Source: Pedosphaera sp. (GTDB lineage: Bacteria; Verrucomicrobiota; Verrucomicrobiia; Limisphaerales; F1-12-MAGs170). From it: a stretch of DNA of 53,475 nucleotides. This document shows positions 9,175-50,740 of this stretch, piece by piece. Below the pieces are notes generated by a model that was not told where the DNA came from, searched no databases, and saw only the letters and a list, made by a program, of their open reading frames with translations. The translations under genes and the position numbers were made by a program. Position 1 is the first letter of the stretch. The number at the start of each line of letters is the position of its first letter. The stretch is from assembly GCA_009695275.1 (NCBI GenBank), contig SIBF01000004.1, positions 1-53,475 of the forward strand, written 5' to 3'.

Positions 9175-10110
9175 TCACTTCGCTCGTAGAGGACGGACAA
9201 TTTCCACCGTGCAATGCGCTCGGGCCGAGACCGCCGAGGCGAGCGTTCCCAGGAAGTGTCGATCGCCGTGGTGCAATCCCCGCGCTCCGAGAAACAAGCA
9301 ATCAGCGTTCATCTGCTCGATTTTCTTCAGCAGAACGTGCTTCGGGTCACCCTCGAAAACGTGCGATTCAGCGGGCCAGCCCGCAGCCGAGAGCCGCGCA
9401 GTAAACTTCTTCGCCATGTCGCAGACCCAGTCATCTGAATCACGGAAATGGTCGCTGACCCACTGATCCGCGTCCGGGCTGGGCCAGGCGCCGGCGGCTT
9501 GCAAGCGCGGATCTTTTATGGCTGCCACCATGAACTGAGTGTGGGCGGACCACGCCCGGGACGCAGCCTCCTCGACCGCAATTGCGCTGTCGGTGGATCC
9601 ATCCACCGCCACCATGATCCGCAGCGGCTTGATCACCGCATCTTTTCTGGCCCTCACAACACGGACGCTGCAGGCGGCTTCCGCCACGACACGCTGGCCC
9701 ACGCTTCCAAGAAAGAACCGCTCAAGCACCGATCGTCCATGTGACCCGACGCTGACCAGATCAGCATTCCAATCGACGGCTTTTCCAACAATCGCCCAGC
9801 CCGGTGAATCCGCGCAGATGAAGGGCCTGACAGTCCATGTGGGAAACCTGGCTTGCAACCGCACGCATGCTTCGTCAGCAATTTGACGCATGGACTCGAC
9901 CGCGGTGTTCGCTTGCGCGCGAGCCGCCTTGATGGCGGGAGTTAATGGGATTTTGTCCGCCGGATTACCAGCCTTATCCGATGGCAGCCAAACGTCCGCC
10001 ACGCTGATGACACAGACTTCCAATCGTGCCGGTAATCCCGCCACTGGCAGGTCTTCGAGCACGGATTCGGCACCCGGGGAACCATCATAAGCAATCAAGA
10101 GTCGTTTCAT
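9175..10110 (-). CDS. Universal stress protein, tandem UspA domains
   Basis: Two Usp-like halves: MKRLLIAYDGSPGAE...GSHGRSVLERFFLGSVGQRVV and RIMVAVDGSTDS...GARGLHHGDRHFLGTLASAVS. Confidence 0.8.
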   Translation of the reverse strand: MKRLLIAYDGSPGAESVLEDLPVAGLPARLEVCVISVADVWLPSDKAGNPADKIPLTPAIKAARAQANTAVESMRQIADEACVRLQARFPTWTVRPFICADSPGWAIVGKAVDWNADLVSVGSHGRSVLERFFLGSVGQRVVAEAACSVRVVRARKDAVIKPLRIMVAVDGSTDSAIAVEEAASRAWSAHTQFMVAAIKDPRLQAAGAWPSPDADQWVSDHFRDSDDWVCDMAKKFTARLSAAGWPAESHVFEGDPKHVLLKKIEQMNADCLFLGARGLHHGDRHFLGTLASAVSARAHCTVEIVRPLRAK

Positions 10111-10241
10111 GGTAGATGATTGATCGGTTCACGTTACGCAAACTCAACTCCACTTGCAATTCCATGGGCGTCTCTTGTTGGGCTCATCCGCAGAGATTGA
10201 TTGCCTATCCTGGCGTCTGATCAGTAACTTCGTGCCATCGC

Positions 10242-44048: not shown

Positions 44049-44193
44049 CAGTTGAAATGGAGAGCGCGGTCGTCTCGACCGCTGTTCTCGGCGTCTCGCC
44101 GAGAACTCAGTGGGCGTGACCAGTCACCAGAGGGTGGGTTTCCGGAGCGGACGAGCTGGTCAGCGAGACGCTGACCAGGGCGTGCGAGACGCA
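44049..44193. repeat. REP-like palindromic doublet (REPIN-like), intergenic
   Basis: Ends are ggagagcgcggtcgtctcgaccgc and gcgtgcgagacgcacgcgctcccc. Internal hairpins are gttctcggcg-tctc-gccgagaac and ctggtcagcg-agac-gctgaccag. Lies between convergent genes. Confidence 0.75.
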
Positions 44194-44219
44194 CGCGCTC
44201 CCCAATTGCGACTGAATAG

Positions 44220-45362
44220 TTACGGTTTAGTCGCTGAATTGCTGAAGCGGGGATTCCAAAATCGGCGTTCTATGAACCGGTGAAACAAACTGCCAAGCAG
44301 GATCGTTACGCCCACGCAGCAAGGAATCCGTAGTAGCAGAATCCCCATCGGGGTGTCGGCACCAGACGAATCAAAGGCATGCCCCACGAGCCGCACCACC
44401 GGCCAATGCACCAGATAAAGGCTGTAGCACATTAGTCCCAGAAAACGCAGTGGAGATAGAATCTGAAGGTTATACGCGGTGCCGTCCCATCGCTTCAGTC
44501 CGAGGATCAGCAGGGCGTAGGAAAATGCCGCCAGGTACGCTTGATTGAGTGGAAGCCGGAGTTGTCGCAAGTCTGGCACTGCCCACAGGATGCCGACCAC
44601 AAGCGGGAGACAAAACCAACCCCATCTTCGCAAGGGGACGTAATTCGAAACGTAATAGACCAGAACTCCCGAAGCGAACATCAGCCATTGACCATCGAGA
44701 AACAGGCCCTCCGTGCGCAACGTTCGCAGTGGAAACAGAACCAGGACGGTTACGATCAGCGTCACCAAACTCAGTGCATGAAAGAAAAATCGGCGCGTGA
44801 CGACCAACGCCAAACCTACCAGGAAATAGAACTGCTCTTCGAAACACAGCGTCCACGAAGGCGGCAGCAGGGGGTTTTCAGAGCCGCCAGTCAGATGCCA
44901 TCGCCAGGTTTCGGTCAGACTCAAATTCCCAAGCCACTGCCATCTCTTCAGTGATTGTGGCGGCGGGACGCCAAGAGCTTCAAAATAGCTCGCAGGAAGA
45001 AACCCCTCAGACAGCCATGCGAACAAGGCTGTCATAGCAAGCGCAGCCCAGAATGGCGGGTAAATCCGCCGGAAGCGTCGCCAGAAGAAAAACTTTGCCG
45101 CGCCAGGTTCCGATCGTAATAGGTCCGCCGATGCCGTGACGCAGTAGCCGCTGATCACAAAGAAGAGTGGAACTCCAATCCAGCACTTTCCCAGGATCGC
45201 AAAGATGCCAGCAGTCACGCCGCTGGTCTCCTGGAGCGGACTTCGCGCGGAATGATAAACGACGACGAGAAGGCAAGCAAAGCCCCGCCACAACGTCAGT
45301 GAGTCATAGCGAACTCGTGAGTGTGTTTCTCCGGCATTCTGCCTTTGGTCTTCCAGCTGCAA
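44220..45362 (-). CDS. Acyltransferase family 3 (OafA/YrhL-like) membrane protein
   Basis: RYDSLTLWRGFACLLVVVYH N-terminal motif, ~10 TM segments. The start is TTG 45362, since there is no upstream ATG. Confidence 0.8.
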   Translation of the reverse strand: MQLEDQRQNAGETHSRVRYDSLTLWRGFACLLVVVYHSARSPLQETSGVTAGIFAILGKCWIGVPLFFVISGYCVTASADLLRSEPGAAKFFFWRRFRRIYPPFWAALAMTALFAWLSEGFLPASYFEALGVPPPQSLKRWQWLGNLSLTETWRWHLTGGSENPLLPPSWTLCFEEQFYFLVGLALVVTRRFFFHALSLVTLIVTVLVLFPLRTLRTEGLFLDGQWLMFASGVLVYYVSNYVPLRRWGWFCLPLVVGILWAVPDLRQLRLPLNQAYLAAFSYALLILGLKRWDGTAYNLQILSPLRFLGLMCYSLYLVHWPVVRLVGHAFDSSGADTPMGILLLRIPCCVGVTILLGSLFHRFIERRFWNPRFSNSATKP

Positions 45363-45454
45363 ATCGTTTCACTCCACACACCGTGCGATAATCGGGCGAA
45401 AAGCCTTGCCAGCGGGGCCGTTTCTGACGCTCAACAGTGCCCGGTGAGAGAAAC

Positions 45455-48400
45455 TCACGCCAGGAGTGCTTTGGCCTTTGCCAACGCCTCGTCCAGCTTG
45501 CCCGGATCCTTGCCGCCACCGCGTGCGTTGTCGGGTTTGCCGCCGCCTTTGCCACCGACGATGGGGGCGATCTGCTGGATGATCTTTCCGGCCTGCACCT
45601 TCGCGGTGAAGTCCGGTGAGACGGAGGCGACCAGTGAGACGGCGTTGTTCGCTGCCCCACCGAGGACGATAACACCCTTGAACCGGCTCTTAAGCGCATC
45701 CACCACGGCTTGGAGATAATCCGCGTCGCCATCGGGGAAACCCTGCGTGATGAGCGGGATGCCGTTGACCGTCTCCGACCGGGTGAGCAACCAGGCCGCG
45801 GTCTGCGCCGCGTTTCGGGCGATGGACGTCTTGAGCGCCTTCTCCGACTCCTTCTGCTGCGCGAGCAGGCTCTCGACTTTCTTCTCCAACTCGGCGACGG
45901 GGGAATTCAACTTTCCCGCGACGGTGCGAAGGAGGTGAAGTTGCTGGTTCGCGAGTTCGTAAGCGGTGAGGCCGGCAACGGCTTCGATACGGCGCACGCC
46001 GGCAGCAATGGCGTTCTCGCTCACGATGCGGAACAGGCCAATCTCGCCTGTCGCACGGGTGTGGGTGCCGCCGCAGAGTTCCATTGAGTAACCATCCAGT
46101 TTGTTCGCCGCGCCGCCGATCTGGACGACGCGTACGGTGTCGCCGTATTTGTCGCCGAAGAATTGCATCACGTCCTTGCGCGATTTCACGTCGGCGTAGG
46201 GGACTTCGGTCCACGAGACGCCGGTGTTTTCAAGAATGCGTTCGTTGACGAGTTTCTCGATGTCGGCAACCTGCGCGGGTGTAAGCGGCGCGCTGTTGAA
46301 GTCGAAAGTCAGCTTGTCCGGGCCGACGAATGAACCTTTTTGCGACGCTTCCTGGCTTACGACTTCGTGCAGCGCCCAGTGGAGCAAGTGCGTGACGGTG
46401 TGGTGACGTTGGATGGCACTGCGGCGTTCGTGATCGACGGTGAGAAGGACTTCCGAACCGACAATTGGCAGCGCGTCGCCAGACGCGCTGGGAGCGCGAC
46501 CGTCCCGGTCGCCCTGCTGCGCGTCTCGCGCAGCAGATCGGTGGGGGTGGAAAACGAGAAACGTTGAGGAACTCGCGGCACCCTCGCGCGGGGAATCGGT
46601 CGGCGAGACGCCGACCGATGCGACCGGGACGGTCGCGCTCCCCTCTTCGATGAAATGGAGCCAGGTGTTGCCGGATTTTTGCGTGTTGGTGATGCGCCAG
46701 AGCTGGCCGCCGCCATTCAATTCGCCGGTGTCACCGACCTGGCCGCCCATCTCGGCGTAGCAGGCGGAAGCATCGAGGATGACAGCGGTCTTGTCCTTGA
46801 GCGAGACGACCTCCAGGACTTTGGCTTGGACGGCGAGGTGCTCGAAGCCGACGAACTTCGTGGGTGTCGTGGTCTCGATTTTCGAAAGTGAAATGACTTC
46901 CTTCTTCTGCGCGGCACGGGCGCGGGCGCGCTGCTCTTTCATCAGCTCTTCAAAGCCCTCCACGTCCACCGTCAGGCCACGTTCGCGCGCCATCAACTCG
47001 GTGAGGTCGAGCGGGAAGCCCTGCTCGTCATAAAGCCGGAACGCGAACGCACCTGAGATTTGGGCAGGGATGGCTTGGGGAGCGCGCCCGCCCCGGGCGC
47101 TGTTTCCCGCGCCCTCGCGGGAAACGGTCGGGCGTGGGACGTCACCGGACGCCGAGATTTCATTGTGCGTTCCCGAGCCGCCCGGGGCGGGCGCGCTCCC
47201 TGGCGCATCGGGAGTCCACAGCCAGCGATAATTCTCCGACGAGGGAACCACGGCGTTGTCCCAGGGATTGCGGCAGATGTAATGAAACTTCTCTTCCAAG
47301 TCCGAGTCGCCTCGCATCAGGCGGTCAAAAAAATCTTCCTCCCAAATATGAACTCCAGAGACCTTGGCCGCTTTGTTGATCTTGTGTGCGGTCGTGGACT
47401 TGATTCCGTGGAGGATTTCTCCGAGCGGATAAAAGACCGGTTTGCCGTCTTTGTCTTGCTCCTTGATTTGGGGTTCGAACAGCAGGTGAACATGGTCGGG
47501 CATCACGCGCGCGGCAAAAAGTTGATACTGCCGATGGGTGTGAGCATAGAGAACGCTCTCCAGCACGATGTCGCGCTCGGCCGGAGTGAGTTGCCGTTTC
47601 TCTCGCGTGGAGAAGGTCACCATGTATTTGCCCCAGGGTCGTTCGAAATGCGGCAGGCGTCTTTTGGAATAGGTAGCACCGGGGTTGTCGGACGCTCTGG
47701 GGCCGACCGCGAGGGCGCGGTCGGCTGCGCCCGGGGCGGGCGCGCTCCCCATCACCAATGGAAGCGGCGATCCCGCAGTCATGTGTGTCTTGTTTCCAAG
47801 TGTAATTCGAGCGGGACCACCCTGAATCAGACTCGCTTCCTCGTTGAAGAGCGCGATACCTTTGTCGAGCGTCTTGTTAAACGCCTCCTCCTCACGCTGG
47901 ATGACCTCCTGCACATGGGCTTTCCGGGCGCGAATTTCAGGGAAGACATCGCCCATTGTGTCGGCGAGCACGTCCACGAGCTTGTAGAAGAACGGTTGGT
48001 GGAAGCCGAGCGTGCGGCCGTAGCGCACGGCGCGGCGCAGGATGCGGCGGAGGACGTAGTTGCGGTCGGTGTTGCCGGGTTGGATGCCGTCGGCAATCGC
48101 AAACGAGAGCGTGCGGATGTGATCGGCAATAACCCGGAAGGCGATATCGAGCGCGATTTGCTCCGCACCATGGGCAGCGCGACCGTCCCGGTCGCTCTGT
48201 TGCGCGTCTCGCGCAACAGCCCCGGGGGTGTGGGAAGCGAGAGATGTTGAGGAACTCGCGGCACCCTCGCGCGCGGAATCGGTCGGCGGGACGCCGACCG
48301 ATGCGACCGGGACGGTCGCGCTCCCCGTCGCTTCGCGACGTAGCTTTTCCTCGGTCGCAGCGTCGGGTGTCCAGAGCCATCGATAGTTTTCCGTGGATGG

Positions 48401-49867
48401 CGCGACGCCGGAATCCCACGGGTTGCGGCAGATGTAGTGGAACTTCTCTTCGAGATCGGCGTCGCCACGAATCATGCGGTCGAACGATTCGTTCTCCCAC
48501 ACTTGGCCCGTGGTGTTTTCCGCCTTGTTGATCTCGTGGGCGGTGAACGATTTGATTGAGTGCATCAACTCGGACAGCGGCCAGAACACGGGCTTGCCTT
48601 CCTTGTCCTCCTCTTTGATCTGCGGCTCGAACAGGAAATGAACGTGATCGGGCATGACGCAGGCGGCATACATCTGATAGCGGCGCTGATCGTGTCCGAA
48701 AAGGAGGCTCTTGAGCACGATGTCCTGCGCTTGCGGCGAAAGCTGACGACGCTCGCGCGTTGTGAAACTAACCATGTATTTCGCCCACGGATGCTCGAAG
48801 TGCGGAAGGCGGCGCTTGTAGTAGGTAGCTTGAGGAGCGCGACCGTCACGGTCGCTCTGCTGCGCGTCCCGCGCGGCAGATCCGGGAGCGTGGGAAGCAG
48901 ATGATGCCGTTGGACTCGTCGCGCGCGTGGGATCGGGCGGCGGGACGCCGACCGGGGCGACCGGGACGGTCGCGCTCCCCGCTCCCTGCGGGAGTGTGCT
49001 GCCATAGCGTTTTCCACTCATTGCTTCCAGCGCGTCGAAGATCGGCCGAAAGATGTCGGTTTCATAGTTGGAGATTCTGGCGTTGGCGAAATCGGTCAGA
49101 CCCTTTGTGCCCTGCATGATGCTCGTGACGCGCTCGAAGCCCATGCCCGTATCCACGTGCTGGGCAGGCAACGGGGAGAATGTGCCGTCCGGGTTCGCGT
49201 TGAACTGGATGAAGACCAGGTTCCAGATCTCGATGCAGCGGGCGTCGCCTTTGTTGACAAGTGAACCCTTGGTGTCGCCAGCGGGCGTCAAATCAACGTG
49301 CAGTTCGGAGCAGGGACCGCATGGCCCGGTCTCACCCATCATCCAGAAGTTGTCTTTCTTGTTGCCGTTGACAATGTGGGCGGCGGGATCGAGGCCGACG
49401 CTGCGGAACTTTTCGGCCCAGAAGTTCCATGCTTCCTCGTCGCGCTCGGCAGGATCACCAATGGATTTGTCCGGATTGTAAATCGTGGCATAGAGCCGTT
49501 GGGGCGGAAATTTCCAGACACCGATAACCAATTCCCACGCCCACTCAATAGCCTCTTTCTTGAAGTAATCGCCGAAGGACCAGTTGCCGAGCATTTCGAA
49601 GAACGTGTGGTGGTAGGTATCAAGGCCGACGTCGTCGAGGTCGTTGTGCTTGCCGCCGGCGCGGATGCACTTCTGGGTGTCGGCGGCGCGGCCGGGTGTG
49701 TAGGGGCACCTGGTCTGGCCGAGGAAGATGGGCACGAACTGGTTCATGCCGGCGTTCGTGAACAGGAGGTTCGGCGAATCGGGCATTAGCGAGGACGATG
49801 GGACGATGGAGTGCTGCTTCGACTTGAAGAAGTCGAGAAACGACTGGCGGATTTGCGAACTCGTCAT
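45455..49867 (-). CDS. alaS: Alanine--tRNA ligase with three in-frame REP/RAYT insertions (1470 aa)
   Basis: ATG 49867 (MTSSQIRQSFLDFF). FTNAGMNQF, RAGGKHNDLDDVG, HHTFFEMLGNWSFGDYFK, WMMGETGPCGPCSE, VDTGMGFERV; FRVIADHIRTL; FRLYDEQGFPLDLT; editing HTVTHLLHWAL and CGGTHT; C-terminal GGGGKPDNARGGG. A single ORF with no internal stops. Confidence 0.9.
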   Translation of the reverse strand: MTSSQIRQSFLDFFKSKQHSIVPSSSLMPDSPNLLFTNAGMNQFVPIFLGQTRCPYTPGRAADTQKCIRAGGKHNDLDDVGLDTYHHTFFEMLGNWSFGDYFKKEAIEWAWELVIGVWKFPPQRLYATIYNPDKSIGDPAERDEEAWNFWAEKFRSVGLDPAAHIVNGNKKDNFWMMGETGPCGPCSELHVDLTPAGDTKGSLVNKGDARCIEIWNLVFIQFNANPDGTFSPLPAQHVDTGMGFERVTSIMQGTKGLTDFANARISNYETDIFRPIFDALEAMSGKRYGSTLPQGAGSATVPVAPVGVPPPDPTRATSPTASSASHAPGSAARDAQQSDRDGRAPQATYYKRRLPHFEHPWAKYMVSFTTRERRQLSPQAQDIVLKSLLFGHDQRRYQMYAACVMPDHVHFLFEPQIKEEDKEGKPVFWPLSELMHSIKSFTAHEINKAENTTGQVWENESFDRMIRGDADLEEKFHYICRNPWDSGVAPSTENYRWLWTPDAATEEKLRREATGSATVPVASVGVPPTDSAREGAASSSTSLASHTPGAVARDAQQSDRDGRAAHGAEQIALDIAFRVIADHIRTLSFAIADGIQPGNTDRNYVLRRILRRAVRYGRTLGFHQPFFYKLVDVLADTMGDVFPEIRARKAHVQEVIQREEEAFNKTLDKGIALFNEEASLIQGGPARITLGNKTHMTAGSPLPLVMGSAPAPGAADRALAVGPRASDNPGATYSKRRLPHFERPWGKYMVTFSTREKRQLTPAERDIVLESVLYAHTHRQYQLFAARVMPDHVHLLFEPQIKEQDKDGKPVFYPLGEILHGIKSTTAHKINKAAKVSGVHIWEEDFFDRLMRGDSDLEEKFHYICRNPWDNAVVPSSENYRWLWTPDAPGSAPAPGGSGTHNEISASGDVPRPTVSREGAGNSARGGRAPQAIPAQISGAFAFRLYDEQGFPLDLTELMARERGLTVDVEGFEELMKEQRARARAAQKKEVISLSKIETTTPTKFVGFEHLAVQAKVLEVVSLKDKTAVILDASACYAEMGGQVGDTGELNGGGQLWRITNTQKSGNTWLHFIEEGSATVPVASVGVSPTDSPREGAASSSTFLVFHPHRSAARDAQQGDRDGRAPSASGDALPIVGSEVLLTVDHERRSAIQRHHTVTHLLHWALHEVVSQEASQKGSFVGPDKLTFDFNSAPLTPAQVADIEKLVNERILENTGVSWTEVPYADVKSRKDVMQFFGDKYGDTVRVVQIGGAANKLDGYSMELCGGTHTRATGEIGLFRIVSENAIAAGVRRIEAVAGLTAYELANQQLHLLRTVAGKLNSPVAELEKKVESLLAQQKESEKALKTSIARNAAQTAAWLLTRSETVNGIPLITQGFPDGDADYLQAVVDALKSRFKGVIVLGGAANNAVSLVASVSPDFTAKVQAGKIIQQIAPIVGGKGGGKPDNARGGGKDPGKLDEALAKAKALLA
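46490..46642. repeat. REP doublet family A (insertion 3 in alaS), 153 bp
   Basis: Exact 23-nt inverted termini gggagcgcgaccgtcccggtcgc / gcgaccgggacggtcgcgctccc, plus inner hairpins with tctc/gaga loops. Translated as 51 codons, GSATVPVASVGVSPTDS...DRDGRAP. Confidence 0.85.
47078..47200. repeat. REP doublet family B (C-terminal flank of insertion 2), 123 bp
   Basis: Exact 22-nt inverted termini gggagcgcgcccgccccgggcg / cgcccggggcgggcgcgctccc. Inner hairpin tttcccgcg-ccct-cgcgggaaa. Translated as 41 codons. Confidence 0.85.
47201..47727 (-). mobile_element. RAYT-type (IS200-like Y1/HUH) transposase module 2, fused in-frame inside alaS
   Basis: YSKRRLPHFERPWGKYMVTF..., HUH motif PDHVHLLF, and catalytic-Tyr motif KFHYICRNPW. 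No start or stop of its own; same frame as alaS. Confidence 0.8.
47728..47749. repeat. Single family-B REP (N-terminal flank of insertion 2)
   Basis: cgcccggggcgggcgcgctccc, identical to the right arm at 47179..47200. Preceded by the hairpin gccgaccgc-gaggg-gcggtcggc. Confidence 0.75.
48173..48325. repeat. REP doublet family A (C-terminal flank of insertion 1), 153 bp
   Basis: Left arm ggcagcgcgaccgtcccggtcgc (1 substitution), right arm gcgaccgggacggtcgcgctccc. Same internal layout as 46490..46642. Confidence 0.85.
48326..48832 (-). mobile_element. RAYT-type (IS200-like Y1/HUH) transposase module 1, fused in-frame inside alaS
   Basis: YYKRRLPHFEHPWAKYMVSF..., HUH motif PDHVHFLF, and KFHYICRNPW. 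169 codons, no stop, same frame as alaS. Confidence 0.8.
48833..48979. repeat. REP doublet family A (N-terminal flank of insertion 1), 147 bp
   Basis: Left arm aggagcgcgaccgtcacggtcgc (2 substitutions), right arm gcgaccgggacggtcgcgctccc. Translated as 49 codons, GSATVPVAPVGVPPPD...DRDGRAP. Confidence 0.85.
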
Positions 49868-50077
49868 TCGTTGAAATGTTAAATCGTTAAATTGTGAACC
49901 GTAAAATCTTTGCCGCGAAAGAACGCAGAGAACACAAAGAATTCTTCCGCAACAAGGCGGGGAAACTAGCCGAAACCGTCCACGAGAGGCGAGTGGAAGT
50001 TTTGGCCCTTTTGGAGGTTCCACTGAAGAGGCAAGCGTGCCCGGCAGCCTTTTCCGACAAAACAGCCGGAAGAGTAT

Positions 50078-50740
50078 TCAGGGCATGAAACGGGGGGGAG
50101 GTGCTTTCACGAACGTCGTCGCGCGGAGATAGATGGGTTCAAGCAGCTCTCCTGGCAGGAAGTTGCTTCGCGTAACCGCGAGCTGACCGATGGCAGATGC
50201 GGCTGGCTCAACGTCGTGTGCTGATTGGAATTTTGCGGATAACCCCGGTCCGAAAAGACCACATTGATCACCGAGCAGAGAGTCGAGTTGTTCACGAGAC
50301 TTGAGGTTCATGGCTTCGATAATCGCGATGGTATTCGGGAAAATGTTCAACAAGGTCACGTAGAATTCACCTCGCTGCGCATCAATGGCGATTCGCACTT
50401 TGTCCCGGAGGCCTCTTTGCTGGAGTTGAAATGCGATGGCGTCAGCGCTGCCAACGCCTTGGAGTTTCAGACCTGTCGCCAGTTGCCAGCCCTGGGCGAT
50501 GGAGATGGCTGCCCGGATGCCGGTGTAGGAACCAGGTCCGAGTCCAACCACGATCTCACTTATCTCGCCGCGTTTGAGCCCGGCAACTCCAAGCGCGTTT
50601 TGTATCAACGCCAGCGGACGCACATTGCGATCCCCGGCATCGGCGGCTTCTCCCAGGATCTTCGCGGCACTGTCGCCATTGGCGGAAAGGATCGCCGCGC
50701 TCCGGATATTTCCTGAGAATTCGAGCGCCAATGTGATCAT
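50078..50740 (-). CDS. tsaB: tRNA t6A37 biosynthesis protein TsaB (YeaZ)
   Basis: MITLALEFSG N-terminus and the GPGSYTGIRAAISIAQG motif. ATGA overlap with the tsaE stop. Confidence 0.8.
   Translation of the reverse strand: MITLALEFSGNIRSAAILSANGDSAAKILGEAADAGDRNVRPLALIQNALGVAGLKRGEISEIVVGLGPGSYTGIRAAISIAQGWQLATGLKLQGVGSADAIAFQLQQRGLRDKVRIAIDAQRGEFYVTLLNIFPNTIAIIEAMNLKSREQLDSLLGDQCGLFGPGLSAKFQSAHDVEPAASAIGQLAVTRSNFLPGELLEPIYLRATTFVKAPPPRFMP

Follow-up and report, generated by a model that had tools for sequence, protein, structure and literature searches.

In-frame REP/RAYT transposase units nested in the alanyl-tRNA synthetase gene of a Pedosphaera sp. and of related Verrucomicrobiota

Here we describe the alaS gene, encoding alanyl-tRNA synthetase (AlaRS), on a stretch of 53,475 nucleotides from Pedosphaera sp. 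(assembly GCA_009695275.1, contig SIBF01000004.1, positions 1 to 53,475), which we refer to as the window. The gene is interrupted by three inserts made of repetitive extragenic palindromic (REP) sequences, two of which also contain a module of a REP-associated tyrosine transposase (RAYT). We consider it likely that this alaS is a working gene that houses two REP/RAYT units of the autonomous type and one non-autonomous REP doublet (REPIN), all in frame, in sense orientation and in loops of the protein. The nested in-frame insertion is lineage-wide and dynamic, and not a peculiarity of one genome. Our data are best read as the trace of a REP/RAYT lineage whose home is within housekeeping genes, with which its inserts are co-translated, an intein-like niche without any sign of splicing.

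The alaS gene and its three inserts

On the minus strand the ORF list gives one open frame, 45455..50023, without interruption over its whole length. Counted from the ATG at 49867 the gene comprises 1470 codons, and its homologues share this start methionine (MTSSQIRQSF). Upstream, at 49868-50023 (-), the frame stays open for 52 further codons, up to a GTG; since the homologues start at the position of ATG 49867, this extension is probably an untranslated leader. A Pfam scan of the 1470-aa protein returned tRNA-synt_2c (three stretches), tRNA_SAD and DHHA1 in order, together with Y1_Tnp (two stretches), and all the domains expected in a preliminary description of this DNA were thereby recovered. 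The alaS equivalog TIGR00344 (NCBIfam) scored 811.4 bits against a cut-off of 457, in four stretches that are broken only at the three inserts. The same description had reported one 1470-codon ORF from ATG 49867 with the AlaRS hallmarks in normal order, and had seen no stop or frameshift introduced by any of the inserted blocks; the ORF list, Pfam and TIGR00344 agree with the former, and the single continuous ORF with the latter. No second alaS was found within the 53-kb window.

Alignment of the protein with catalytic AlaRS fragments of solved structure (human, E. coli and A. aeolicus) gave E <= 1e-110. The alignment breaks at the inserts, with human residues 297/304 corresponding to residues 287/567 of the query and human 415/426 to 676/937. 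Insert borders were set by alignment to the solved AlaRS structures and to insert-free relatives. The gene is made up of the following parts (dN and dS, nonsynonymous and synonymous divergence; pLDDT, predicted local distance difference test; HUH, histidine-hydrophobic-histidine motif):

45455..49867 (-): alaS coding sequence, 1470 codons plus stop; a complete AlaRS (catalytic, tRNA-recognition, beta-barrel, editing and C-Ala parts) with three in-frame inserts
48983..49867 (-): AlaRS core segment A, aa 1-295, aminoacylation domain, ending with the conserved YGSTLP; dN/dS 0.08-0.11
48173..48982 (-): insert 1, aa 296-565, 270 codons, at site 1, in the order REPIN, RAYT1, REPIN; from alignments and inverted repeats
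48834..48979 (-): 5' REPIN of insert 1, 147 nt including the last base, encoding GSATVPVAPVGV...RDGRAP; dS 0.24-0.30 against 0.8-1.0 in neighbouring regions, pLDDT <50
48353..48829 (-): RAYT1 module, aa 347-505, with HUH (DHVHF) and catalytic Tyr (FHYICRNPW) intact; dN/dS 0.083-0.091, pLDDT >90, fold match to 4er8_A
48173..48325 (-): 3' REPIN of insert 1, 153 nt; from inverted repeats and the REP arm
47819..48172 (-): AlaRS core segment B, aa 566-683, helical tRNA-recognition region (FRVIADHIR...); from structure alignment
47075..47818 (-): insert 2, aa 684-931, 248 codons, at site 2, with about 22 other codons, a single REP, RAYT2 and a REPIN; from alignments and inverted repeats
47707..47751 (-): 5' REP of insert 2, the left arm of a 45-nt inverted repeat (89% complementary) around RAYT2
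47204..47677 (-): RAYT2 module, aa 731-888, 70% identical to RAYT1, HUH and Tyr intact; dN/dS 0.067, pLDDT ~85-90
47078..47200 (-): 3' REPIN of insert 2, 123 nt; from inverted repeats
46643..47074 (-): AlaRS core segment C, aa 932-1075, from FRLYDEQGFPLDLT to the beta-barrel; from structure alignment
46490..46642 (-): insert 3, aa 1076-1126, 51 codons, at site 3, formed by one 153-nt REPIN (solo, RAYT1 type); from inverted repeats and the REP arm
45455..46489 (-): AlaRS core segment D, aa 1127-1470, editing domain (HxxxH, CGGTH) and C-Ala/DHHA1; from Pfam and structure alignment

Three blocks of 269, 224 and 51 codons had been given before. Their number and the size of the third are exact, whereas the first two now measure 270 and 248 codons, about 226 of the latter being REP/RAYT. 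The 5' edge of insert 2, 47753-47818 (-), aa 684-705, accounts for the other 22 or so codons (GPARITLGNKTHMTAGSPLPLV), which are neither AlaRS nor REP nor RAYT and are missing from the closest homologue, P0001 (P and L numbers designate homologue clusters and genome or metagenome loci, respectively).

alaS holds four REPINs (147, 153, 153 and 123 nt) and one single REP. The REP arm GGAGCGCGACCGTCCCGGTCGC and its variant GGGAGCGCGCCCGCCCCGGGCG together occur in eight copies in the window, all of them within alaS, where shuffled sequences lead one to expect 0.00-0.02. Every REP unit opens with the tag GGGAGCGCG, directly followed by a hairpin, and the starts of all five units have the codon phase GGG-AGC-GCG in common. 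All REPIN lengths are divisible by three, and the REPINs are free of stops in nearly all frames (in five of the six for that of insert 3). This solo REPIN has 40-nt arms, 85% complementary, around a 73-nt spacer, and folds with an energy of -68 kcal/mol (z = -9.5). Inverted repeats surround the RAYT in both insert 1 and insert 2; the inverted-repeat search and the arm counts thus bear out the earlier statement that the blocks consist of palindromic REP-like doublets and that two of them hold a RAYT. The REPs belonging to RAYT1 and RAYT2 are GGGAGCGCGACCGTCCCGGTCGC... and GGGAGCGCGCCCGCCCCGGGCG..., respectively, and the REPIN of insert 2 is of a second type with the hairpin GCGCCCGCCCCGGGCGC. 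Since the two RAYTs are only 70% identical and the REP hairpins differ, alaS contains two distinct REP/RAYT systems in addition to a solo REPIN of the first type. No target sequence shared by the three sites was found; comparison of filled with empty site 3 gives the borders within a few bases.

Both RAYT modules match NF047646 (REP_Tyr_transpos, NCBIfam; 136.5 bits, cut-off 80, two stretches) and PF01797 (Y1_Tnp; 50 bits, cut-off 23, two stretches). Both contain DHVH and FHYICRNPW, and each is about 90% identical to RAYTs at the same site of other AlaRS. When 130 embedded RAYT domains were compared, 128 had kept the HUH motif and 129 the catalytic Tyr. Both modules are internal to alaS without a start or stop of their own, whereas described RAYTs are typically free-standing and single-copy; no conserved Met was found at the RAYT start among the homologues.

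An AlphaFold model of residues 1-1200, built on a 138-sequence alignment, gave both RAYT modules with confidence (pLDDT ~85-95). The REP-encoded segments (291-357, 504-565, 686-741, 886-932 and 1081-1129) had pLDDT <50 and no secondary structure, and these linkers are predicted to be disordered. Helices 274-284 and 568-592 flank insert 1, helices 649-681 and 939-949 flank insert 2, and strands 1068-1073 and 1139-1144 flank insert 3; the corresponding loops of insert-free relatives measure 12-13, 6-10 and 6-7 residues, respectively. Structure alignment and model therefore place all three between secondary-structure elements, as had been proposed when the blocks were described as tolerated insertions in variable linkers or loops. 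In a Foldseek search of the PDB the best match other than AlaRS was 4er8_A (E = 1.7e-4, TM 0.57 over the target), which shows the RAYT of E. coli in complex with a REP hairpin, followed by the TnpA proteins of ISDra2, IS200 and IS608; phmmer with the RAYT sequence found no match in the PDB.

Recurrence, reading frame and turnover in related synthetases

When the whole protein was searched against 5.8 billion protein clusters, the best 120 matches were all AlaRS with a RAYT, 1084-1408 aa long. They stem from JGI, ENA and NCBI assemblies labelled Verrucomicrobiota, and many are automatically named 'alanyl-tRNA synthetase/REP element-mobilizing transposase RayT'. Segment-wise BLAST mapping placed the RAYT of the best homologues at site 1 alone in 57, at site 2 alone in 55, at both of these sites in 8, and at sites 2 and 3 in 1. 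We also scanned raw DNA with tblastn, using one genome per species of the Genome Taxonomy Database (GTDB), and considered the best 80 loci. Their labels include Limisphaerales, Chthoniobacterales and Verrucomicrobiales and, for one metagenome-assembled genome (MAG), Kiritimatiellaeota. As several of the MAG labels clearly result from misbinning, the outer limits of this taxonomic range call for caution. The best locus is 76% identical to the window protein, some carrier loci lie on contigs of 1.1-2.3 Mb, and no genome contributed duplicate alaS copies to the 80.

As tblastn reads raw DNA, the scan provides an unbiased test of the reading frame across the junctions. RAYT and AlaRS were in the same frame, with stop-free linkers, at 80 of 81 junctions (P = 3.7e-37 against an expectation of 1/3). 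In L035, the one exception, the frame is shifted at a point 29 nt upstream of the RAYT. Frameshifts in or beside alaS were seen in four MAGs, at the RAYT junction in L035 (5409-5439) and elsewhere in the gene in L028, L029 and L050; two of the four bear MFD isolate names, and the frameshifts could be sequencing indels or truly inactivated copies. An apparent 5.7-kb alaS in L038 was rejected as a case of nesting. It is really a normal 1005-aa alaS that follows a sensor-kinase gene and an AlaRS-like fragment; the fragment, 51 codons resembling the AlaRS N terminus at 10001-10153, lies 2.6 kb upstream of alaS with the sensor histidine kinase gene between them.

Selection was estimated by comparing the window with two other carriers, L001 (an NCBI MAG, on a 1.1-Mb contig) and L002. 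AlaRS core segments had dN/dS of 0.08-0.28 and dS of 0.70-0.98. RAYT1 gave dN/dS of 0.083 and 0.091 (dS 0.83 and 1.08) and RAYT2 gave 0.067 (dS 1.10), a constraint as strong as that on the AlaRS catalytic domain (dN/dS 0.08-0.11). Because dS of the RAYTs equals that of the host gene, they have been inherited in place and have diverged for as long as their host. The REPIN-encoded segments behave differently, with dS of only 0.24-0.38 and dN/dS of 0.4-0.5, which argues that they are conserved as nucleic acid and not as peptide. In L001 the 22-nt REP arm is identical four times over, even though the AlaRS core is only about 83-85% identical. Taken together, the 80 of 81 in-frame junctions and the dN/dS of 0.07-0.09 for RAYT in the frame of alaS strongly imply, at the level of sequence, that the inserts are translated together with AlaRS.

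These results bear on whether the arrangement might be an artefact, that is, a chimera assembled across misjoined repeats, or else a decaying or redundant alaS pseudogene. REP repeats do break assemblies: in the MAG F1F2.bin.388 one alaS is split over two contigs (L014 and L067) at site 3, where the beta-barrel gives way to the editing domain, probably through failure of the assembler at a REPIN. We nevertheless regard a chimera or a pseudogene as highly improbable. The same architecture occurs in more than 120 assemblies made independently of one another (JGI, ENA and NCBI), some of them with contigs of megabase length, the junctions are in frame in all cases but one, the TIGR00344 score is far above its cut-off, and the best 80 loci are without a duplicate alaS from one genome. 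Moreover, the AlaRS core of the carriers is under purifying selection (dN/dS 0.08-0.28), and hence the alaS copy is not a decaying duplicate.

The in-frame junctions raise a further alternative, namely that the mature enzyme is formed only once the inserts have been removed or split off, by protein splicing, by proteolysis of the linkers (giving a split AlaRS and a free RAYT), by RNA processing or by internal initiation. Removal at the protein level would require conservation of the frame as well, the long linkers, predicted to be disordered, are likely accessible to proteases, and conserved loops of essential replication, repair and translation proteins are the classical niche of inteins. However, Pfam shows AlaRS domains and Y1_Tnp alone, with no Hint or intein match at E <= 0.01. 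The junctions (...LPQGA|GSATV... and ...GRAAH|GAEQI...) vary among homologues and REP families and are without a Cys/Ser/Thr...His-Asn pattern. An Rfam scan of 44500-50500 at E <= 1 gave no match to a group I or group II intron or to any other RNA family, and the RAYT start lacks a conserved Met. Plain tolerance is favoured over removal because many unrelated inserts, whether REP-only, tandem-repeat or helical, fill the same loops. We therefore judge removal of the inserts to be improbable.

To rank relatives by AlaRS similarity alone, an artificial insert-free core of 901 aa was used as the query. The 120 nearest AlaRS by core are 75-83% identical to it; 12 carry a RAYT, 41 have no insert at any site, and the remainder have smaller non-RAYT inserts in the same loops. 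The comparison with related Verrucomicrobiota suggested in the preliminary description thus revealed the presence/absence polymorphism it had envisaged. On a neighbour-joining tree of the cores the RAYT state changes at least 35 times at site 1 and at least 46 times at site 2, against about 57 for a random arrangement, although such counts are rough and perhaps inflated, as the sequences are closely spaced. RAYT distances correlate only weakly with core distances (Spearman 0.18-0.21 in two large groups). One RAYT cluster is represented at all three sites, in 57 proteins at site 2, in 16 at site 1 and in one at site 3, and closely similar modules are found at different sites, such as the site-1 RAYT of P0036 and the site-2 RAYT of P0003 (94% identical), or the site-3 RAYT of P0016 and the site-1 RAYT of P0103 (88% identical).

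Across the homologues the same loops hold at least 6-8 families of REP peptides, REP-only inserts, tandem low-complexity repeats and unrelated helical inserts. Site 1 of many AlaRS that lack RAYT or have it at site 2 only (P0006, P0014, P0032, P0068) contains a conserved motif like PLKTSGEAPSNIIEV followed by an acidic stretch, which is not REP-like. Tandem peptide repeats (HGRPVDA x n, SPNVGTP x n) fill site 1 of P0027, P0035, P0013, P0019, P0025 and P0009. At site 2, homologues with RAYT at site 1 only (P0005, P0015, P0017, P0024, P0097) carry inserts of 20-146 aa that are rich in helices, highly variable, not homologous to one another and AT-richer in their coding sequence. The site-1 loop seems to accept almost anything.

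Dispersed REPs and other host genes

The inserts had previously been taken as the only REPIN-like elements in the window. This proved incorrect, as one further element lies between convergent ORFs:

44058..44203 (+): intergenic REPIN-like palindrome with the same terminal tag as the alaS REPINs (GGAGAGCGCG...CGCGCTCCCC); -52 kcal/mol, z = -6.1

It is located about 1.3 kb past the alaS stop and has the paired-hairpin layout of the alaS REPINs with different hairpin sequences. No RAYT cognate to it was found in the window. L002 also contains an intergenic REPIN. The linker 16-mers have about 4-7 exact matches in 576 kb of DNA flanking 43 loci. The exact 22-nt REP arm was found in at least 120 metagenome loci, and 113 of the 120 listed have neither AlaRS nor RAYT within 1.5 kb. 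The idea that these REPs are essentially confined to alaS is ruled out by these 113 loci and by the divergent intergenic REPIN at 44058-44203.

Some of the REPs outside alaS are themselves intragenic. L111 (metagenome contig Ga0181531_10001087) has a 1100-aa ORF for valyl-tRNA synthetase (ValRS) with three in-frame REPINs of related families, and L150 contains another ValRS with a REPIN at one of the positions seen in L111 and a different repeat-derived insert. A more distant RAYT type (YLPHFD...HVHVLIET...YIHxNPV) is nested in a 1192-aa methylase-like ORF of L187, and is present in L168 (6918-7631) as a free-standing gene of 237 aa with a REP-encoded tail; both of these distant RAYTs adjoin a copy of the REP arm that occurs in the window.

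We further compared a HMMER profile of the two RAYT modules with 1.84 billion representative proteins and examined the best 150 of the 6373 matches. Among these 150, 25 are AlaRS or fragments of AlaRS, and 18 are other long proteins with an internal RAYT. The other hosts comprise RecG, PriA, ValRS, PurH, a glycyl-radical enzyme, shikimate kinase (AroK), BirA, a fragment resembling threonyl-tRNA synthetase, and DNA methylases. Two of the host genes, both full-length and in an ordinary neighbourhood, carry the RAYT inside an inverted repeat, of 70 nt (93% complementary) in recG and of 27 nt (96% complementary) in the ValRS gene. According to the source names the ValRS case belongs to Phycisphaeraceae, the PriA case, found on 48 contigs, to Verrucomicrobiota, and one methylase case to Rubrobacteraceae. 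Within the same best 150, no representative of free-standing size exceeds 42% identity to the window RAYT, and all matches at 50% or above are nested or fragmentary.

It could be asked whether the RAYT is by now a permanent accessory domain of AlaRS, exapted for a host function such as nucleic-acid binding or regulation, with the REPs as mere linkers. The strong purifying selection on RAYT would fit this, as would a dS equal to that of the host core, which indicates long vertical co-inheritance in the window, L001 and L002; RAYTs are also generally regarded as domesticated single-copy genes (PMC5581495). In contrast, only about 10% of the closest AlaRS relatives have a RAYT (12 of 120), the module uses three alternative loops and switches among them, and two RAYT lineages are present in one protein. 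The same clade is embedded in many unrelated enzymes, what is conserved is the catalytic HUH/Tyr and the REP DNA and not the linker peptide, and matching REPs are dispersed throughout the genome. Exaptation therefore appears unlikely to us, if slightly less so than removal of the inserts.

A proposed nested REP/RAYT lineage and its relation to known systems

The reading that we prefer, a functional AlaRS with co-translated mobile inserts, would work as follows. The ribosome would read straight through the inserts, and each RAYT would fold as a domain of its own on disordered, REP-encoded linkers of about 50 residues. Since the RAYT would fold by itself and be tethered by disordered linkers, the AlaRS core could still assemble, and the inserts would be tolerated because they sit in surface loops and because their palindromic ends encode flexible linkers without stops. 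The RAYT, having no promoter, start or stop of its own, would be expressed by alaS, and it would be shielded from loss because an imprecise deletion would destroy an essential gene. The suggestion that alaS serves as a deletion-proof expression platform may well apply, and fits the presence of the same RAYT clade inside many other housekeeping genes. The matching REP/REPIN family, members of which are dispersed outside alaS too, would be recognised and mobilised by the embedded RAYTs. Over evolutionary time units would come and go, presumably leaving by precise excision as elements of the IS200/IS605 family do, and would move among the three loops and into other housekeeping genes. We infer that the full fusion is translated, that both partners are active in it and that nesting carries a selective advantage; mobilisation of the dispersed REPs by the nested RAYT would likewise be expected from their sequences. 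The predicted fusion has a mass of about 160 kDa and contains junction peptides such as YGSTLPQGAGSATVPVAPVGV and RDGRAAHGAEQIALDIAF.

Several points weigh against this reading. Both the 1470-aa polypeptide and the aminoacylation of tRNA by it are deduced from the DNA, and protein splicing, or cleavage of the linkers after translation, would demand a conserved frame just as much. The tie between the alaS-borne RAYT and the dispersed REPs is one of sequence identity. The alaS copy number was judged from the window and the best 80 genome loci, and a second alaS elsewhere is possible. The window locus is known from an assembled contig, which leaves some room for a chimera, and the roughness of the gain and loss counts has been mentioned above. 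Finally, the GTAG tetranucleotide that marks the foot of the REP hairpin in group 2/3 systems is absent from all REP units of alaS.

Considering the wider family, we lean towards the view that there is an obligately intragenic Y1 clade in Verrucomicrobiota and Planctomycetota, with one methylase-nested relative labelled Actinomycetota. Its members, without genes of their own, would be co-translated and catalytically active within essential enzymes (chiefly AlaRS, but also ValRS, a protein resembling threonyl-tRNA synthetase, RecG, PriA, PurH, BirA and AroK), their REP ends would double as disordered linkers, and they would maintain REPIN populations throughout the genome.

REPs, REPINs, RAYTs and intragenic REPs are all known, and the intein-like nested arrangement is undescribed in the searchable literature. 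No description of RAYTs nested in frame in host genes was found in the searchable full texts, which mostly exclude subscription journals. The literature presents RAYTs as stand-alone genes with REPs on either side that occur in single copy and are passed on vertically (PMC5581495, PMC8266576). In surveys, 'unexpectedly long' transposase matches were discarded as fusions or annotation errors (PMC6006769).

The units in alaS resemble the REPtrons (REP/REPIN-RAYT systems) of Proteobacteria (E. coli, Pseudomonas and Stenotrophomonas) in having a Y1 HUH transposase with a single catalytic Tyr, inverted REPs around the transposase, dispersed cognate REPINs, mostly vertical inheritance and selection on the transposase, and their predicted fold matches 4er8. 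In some REPtron systems the REPs are also concentrated near the RAYT gene (PMC8266576). They differ in that the RAYT in alaS is an internal in-frame segment of a housekeeping ORF without a gene of its own, and in that two lineages share one gene. The REP tag is GGGAGCGCG in place of GTAG, and the REPIN lengths are multiples of three and stop-free. Units of the alaS type also change loop and host, whereas classical RAYTs are regarded as immobile single-copy genes.

Palindromic repeats in frame within genes are known from Rickettsia (Rickettsia palindromic elements, RPEs), and in-frame GTAG/CGTC REPs are known as well, many of them in replication and repair genes; the verrucomicrobium Opitutus terrae has the highest intragenic GTAG count (PMC3733652). 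The RPEs and the REPs of O. terrae are similar to the present case in being palindromes that lie in frame in functional genes, often for replication or repair, and that are presumably tolerated in loops. However, RPEs and intragenic REPs are small non-coding repeats only, of 20-80 aa (PMC3733652), whereas alaS contains whole transposase units of about 225-270 codons, under selection at the protein level, in the same loops of over a hundred relatives.

Inteins with homing endonucleases are likewise selfish, in frame at conserved sites of essential proteins (synthetases, helicases and replication proteins), translated with their host and sporadic among close relatives; occasionally more than one is found per host protein, and nesting protects them from deletion. 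Unlike inteins, the alaS inserts have neither a Hint domain nor splice-junction residues, carry a single-stranded DNA transposase in place of a homing endonuclease, and are flanked by DNA palindromes that are themselves translated. Finally, IStrons and other IS200/IS605 derivatives (CdISt1) are elements with a Y1 transposase that reside inside genes without destroying the gene product. IStrons escape at the RNA level through a group I ribozyme; in view of the Rfam scan, which contained no ribozyme, and of the conserved frame, the alaS inserts would escape by read-through translation.

In summary, RAYTs are the textbook case of a 'domesticated', immobile, single-copy transposase gene, and here we describe a RAYT clade that appears to have no gene of its own and to live inside essential ORFs. 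If the fusion is made and active, the consequences would be fourfold. The discarded long transposase matches (PMC6006769) and the automatic dual names 'alanyl-tRNA synthetase/RayT' would hide real biology. A class II synthetase would be seen to tolerate about 570 extra residues at three loops, which would be useful for domain-insertion engineering. REPIN biology would gain a system in which the transposase dosage is hard-wired to a housekeeping gene. Most broadly, colonisation of essential genes without splicing would represent a third solution, beside inteins and self-splicing introns.

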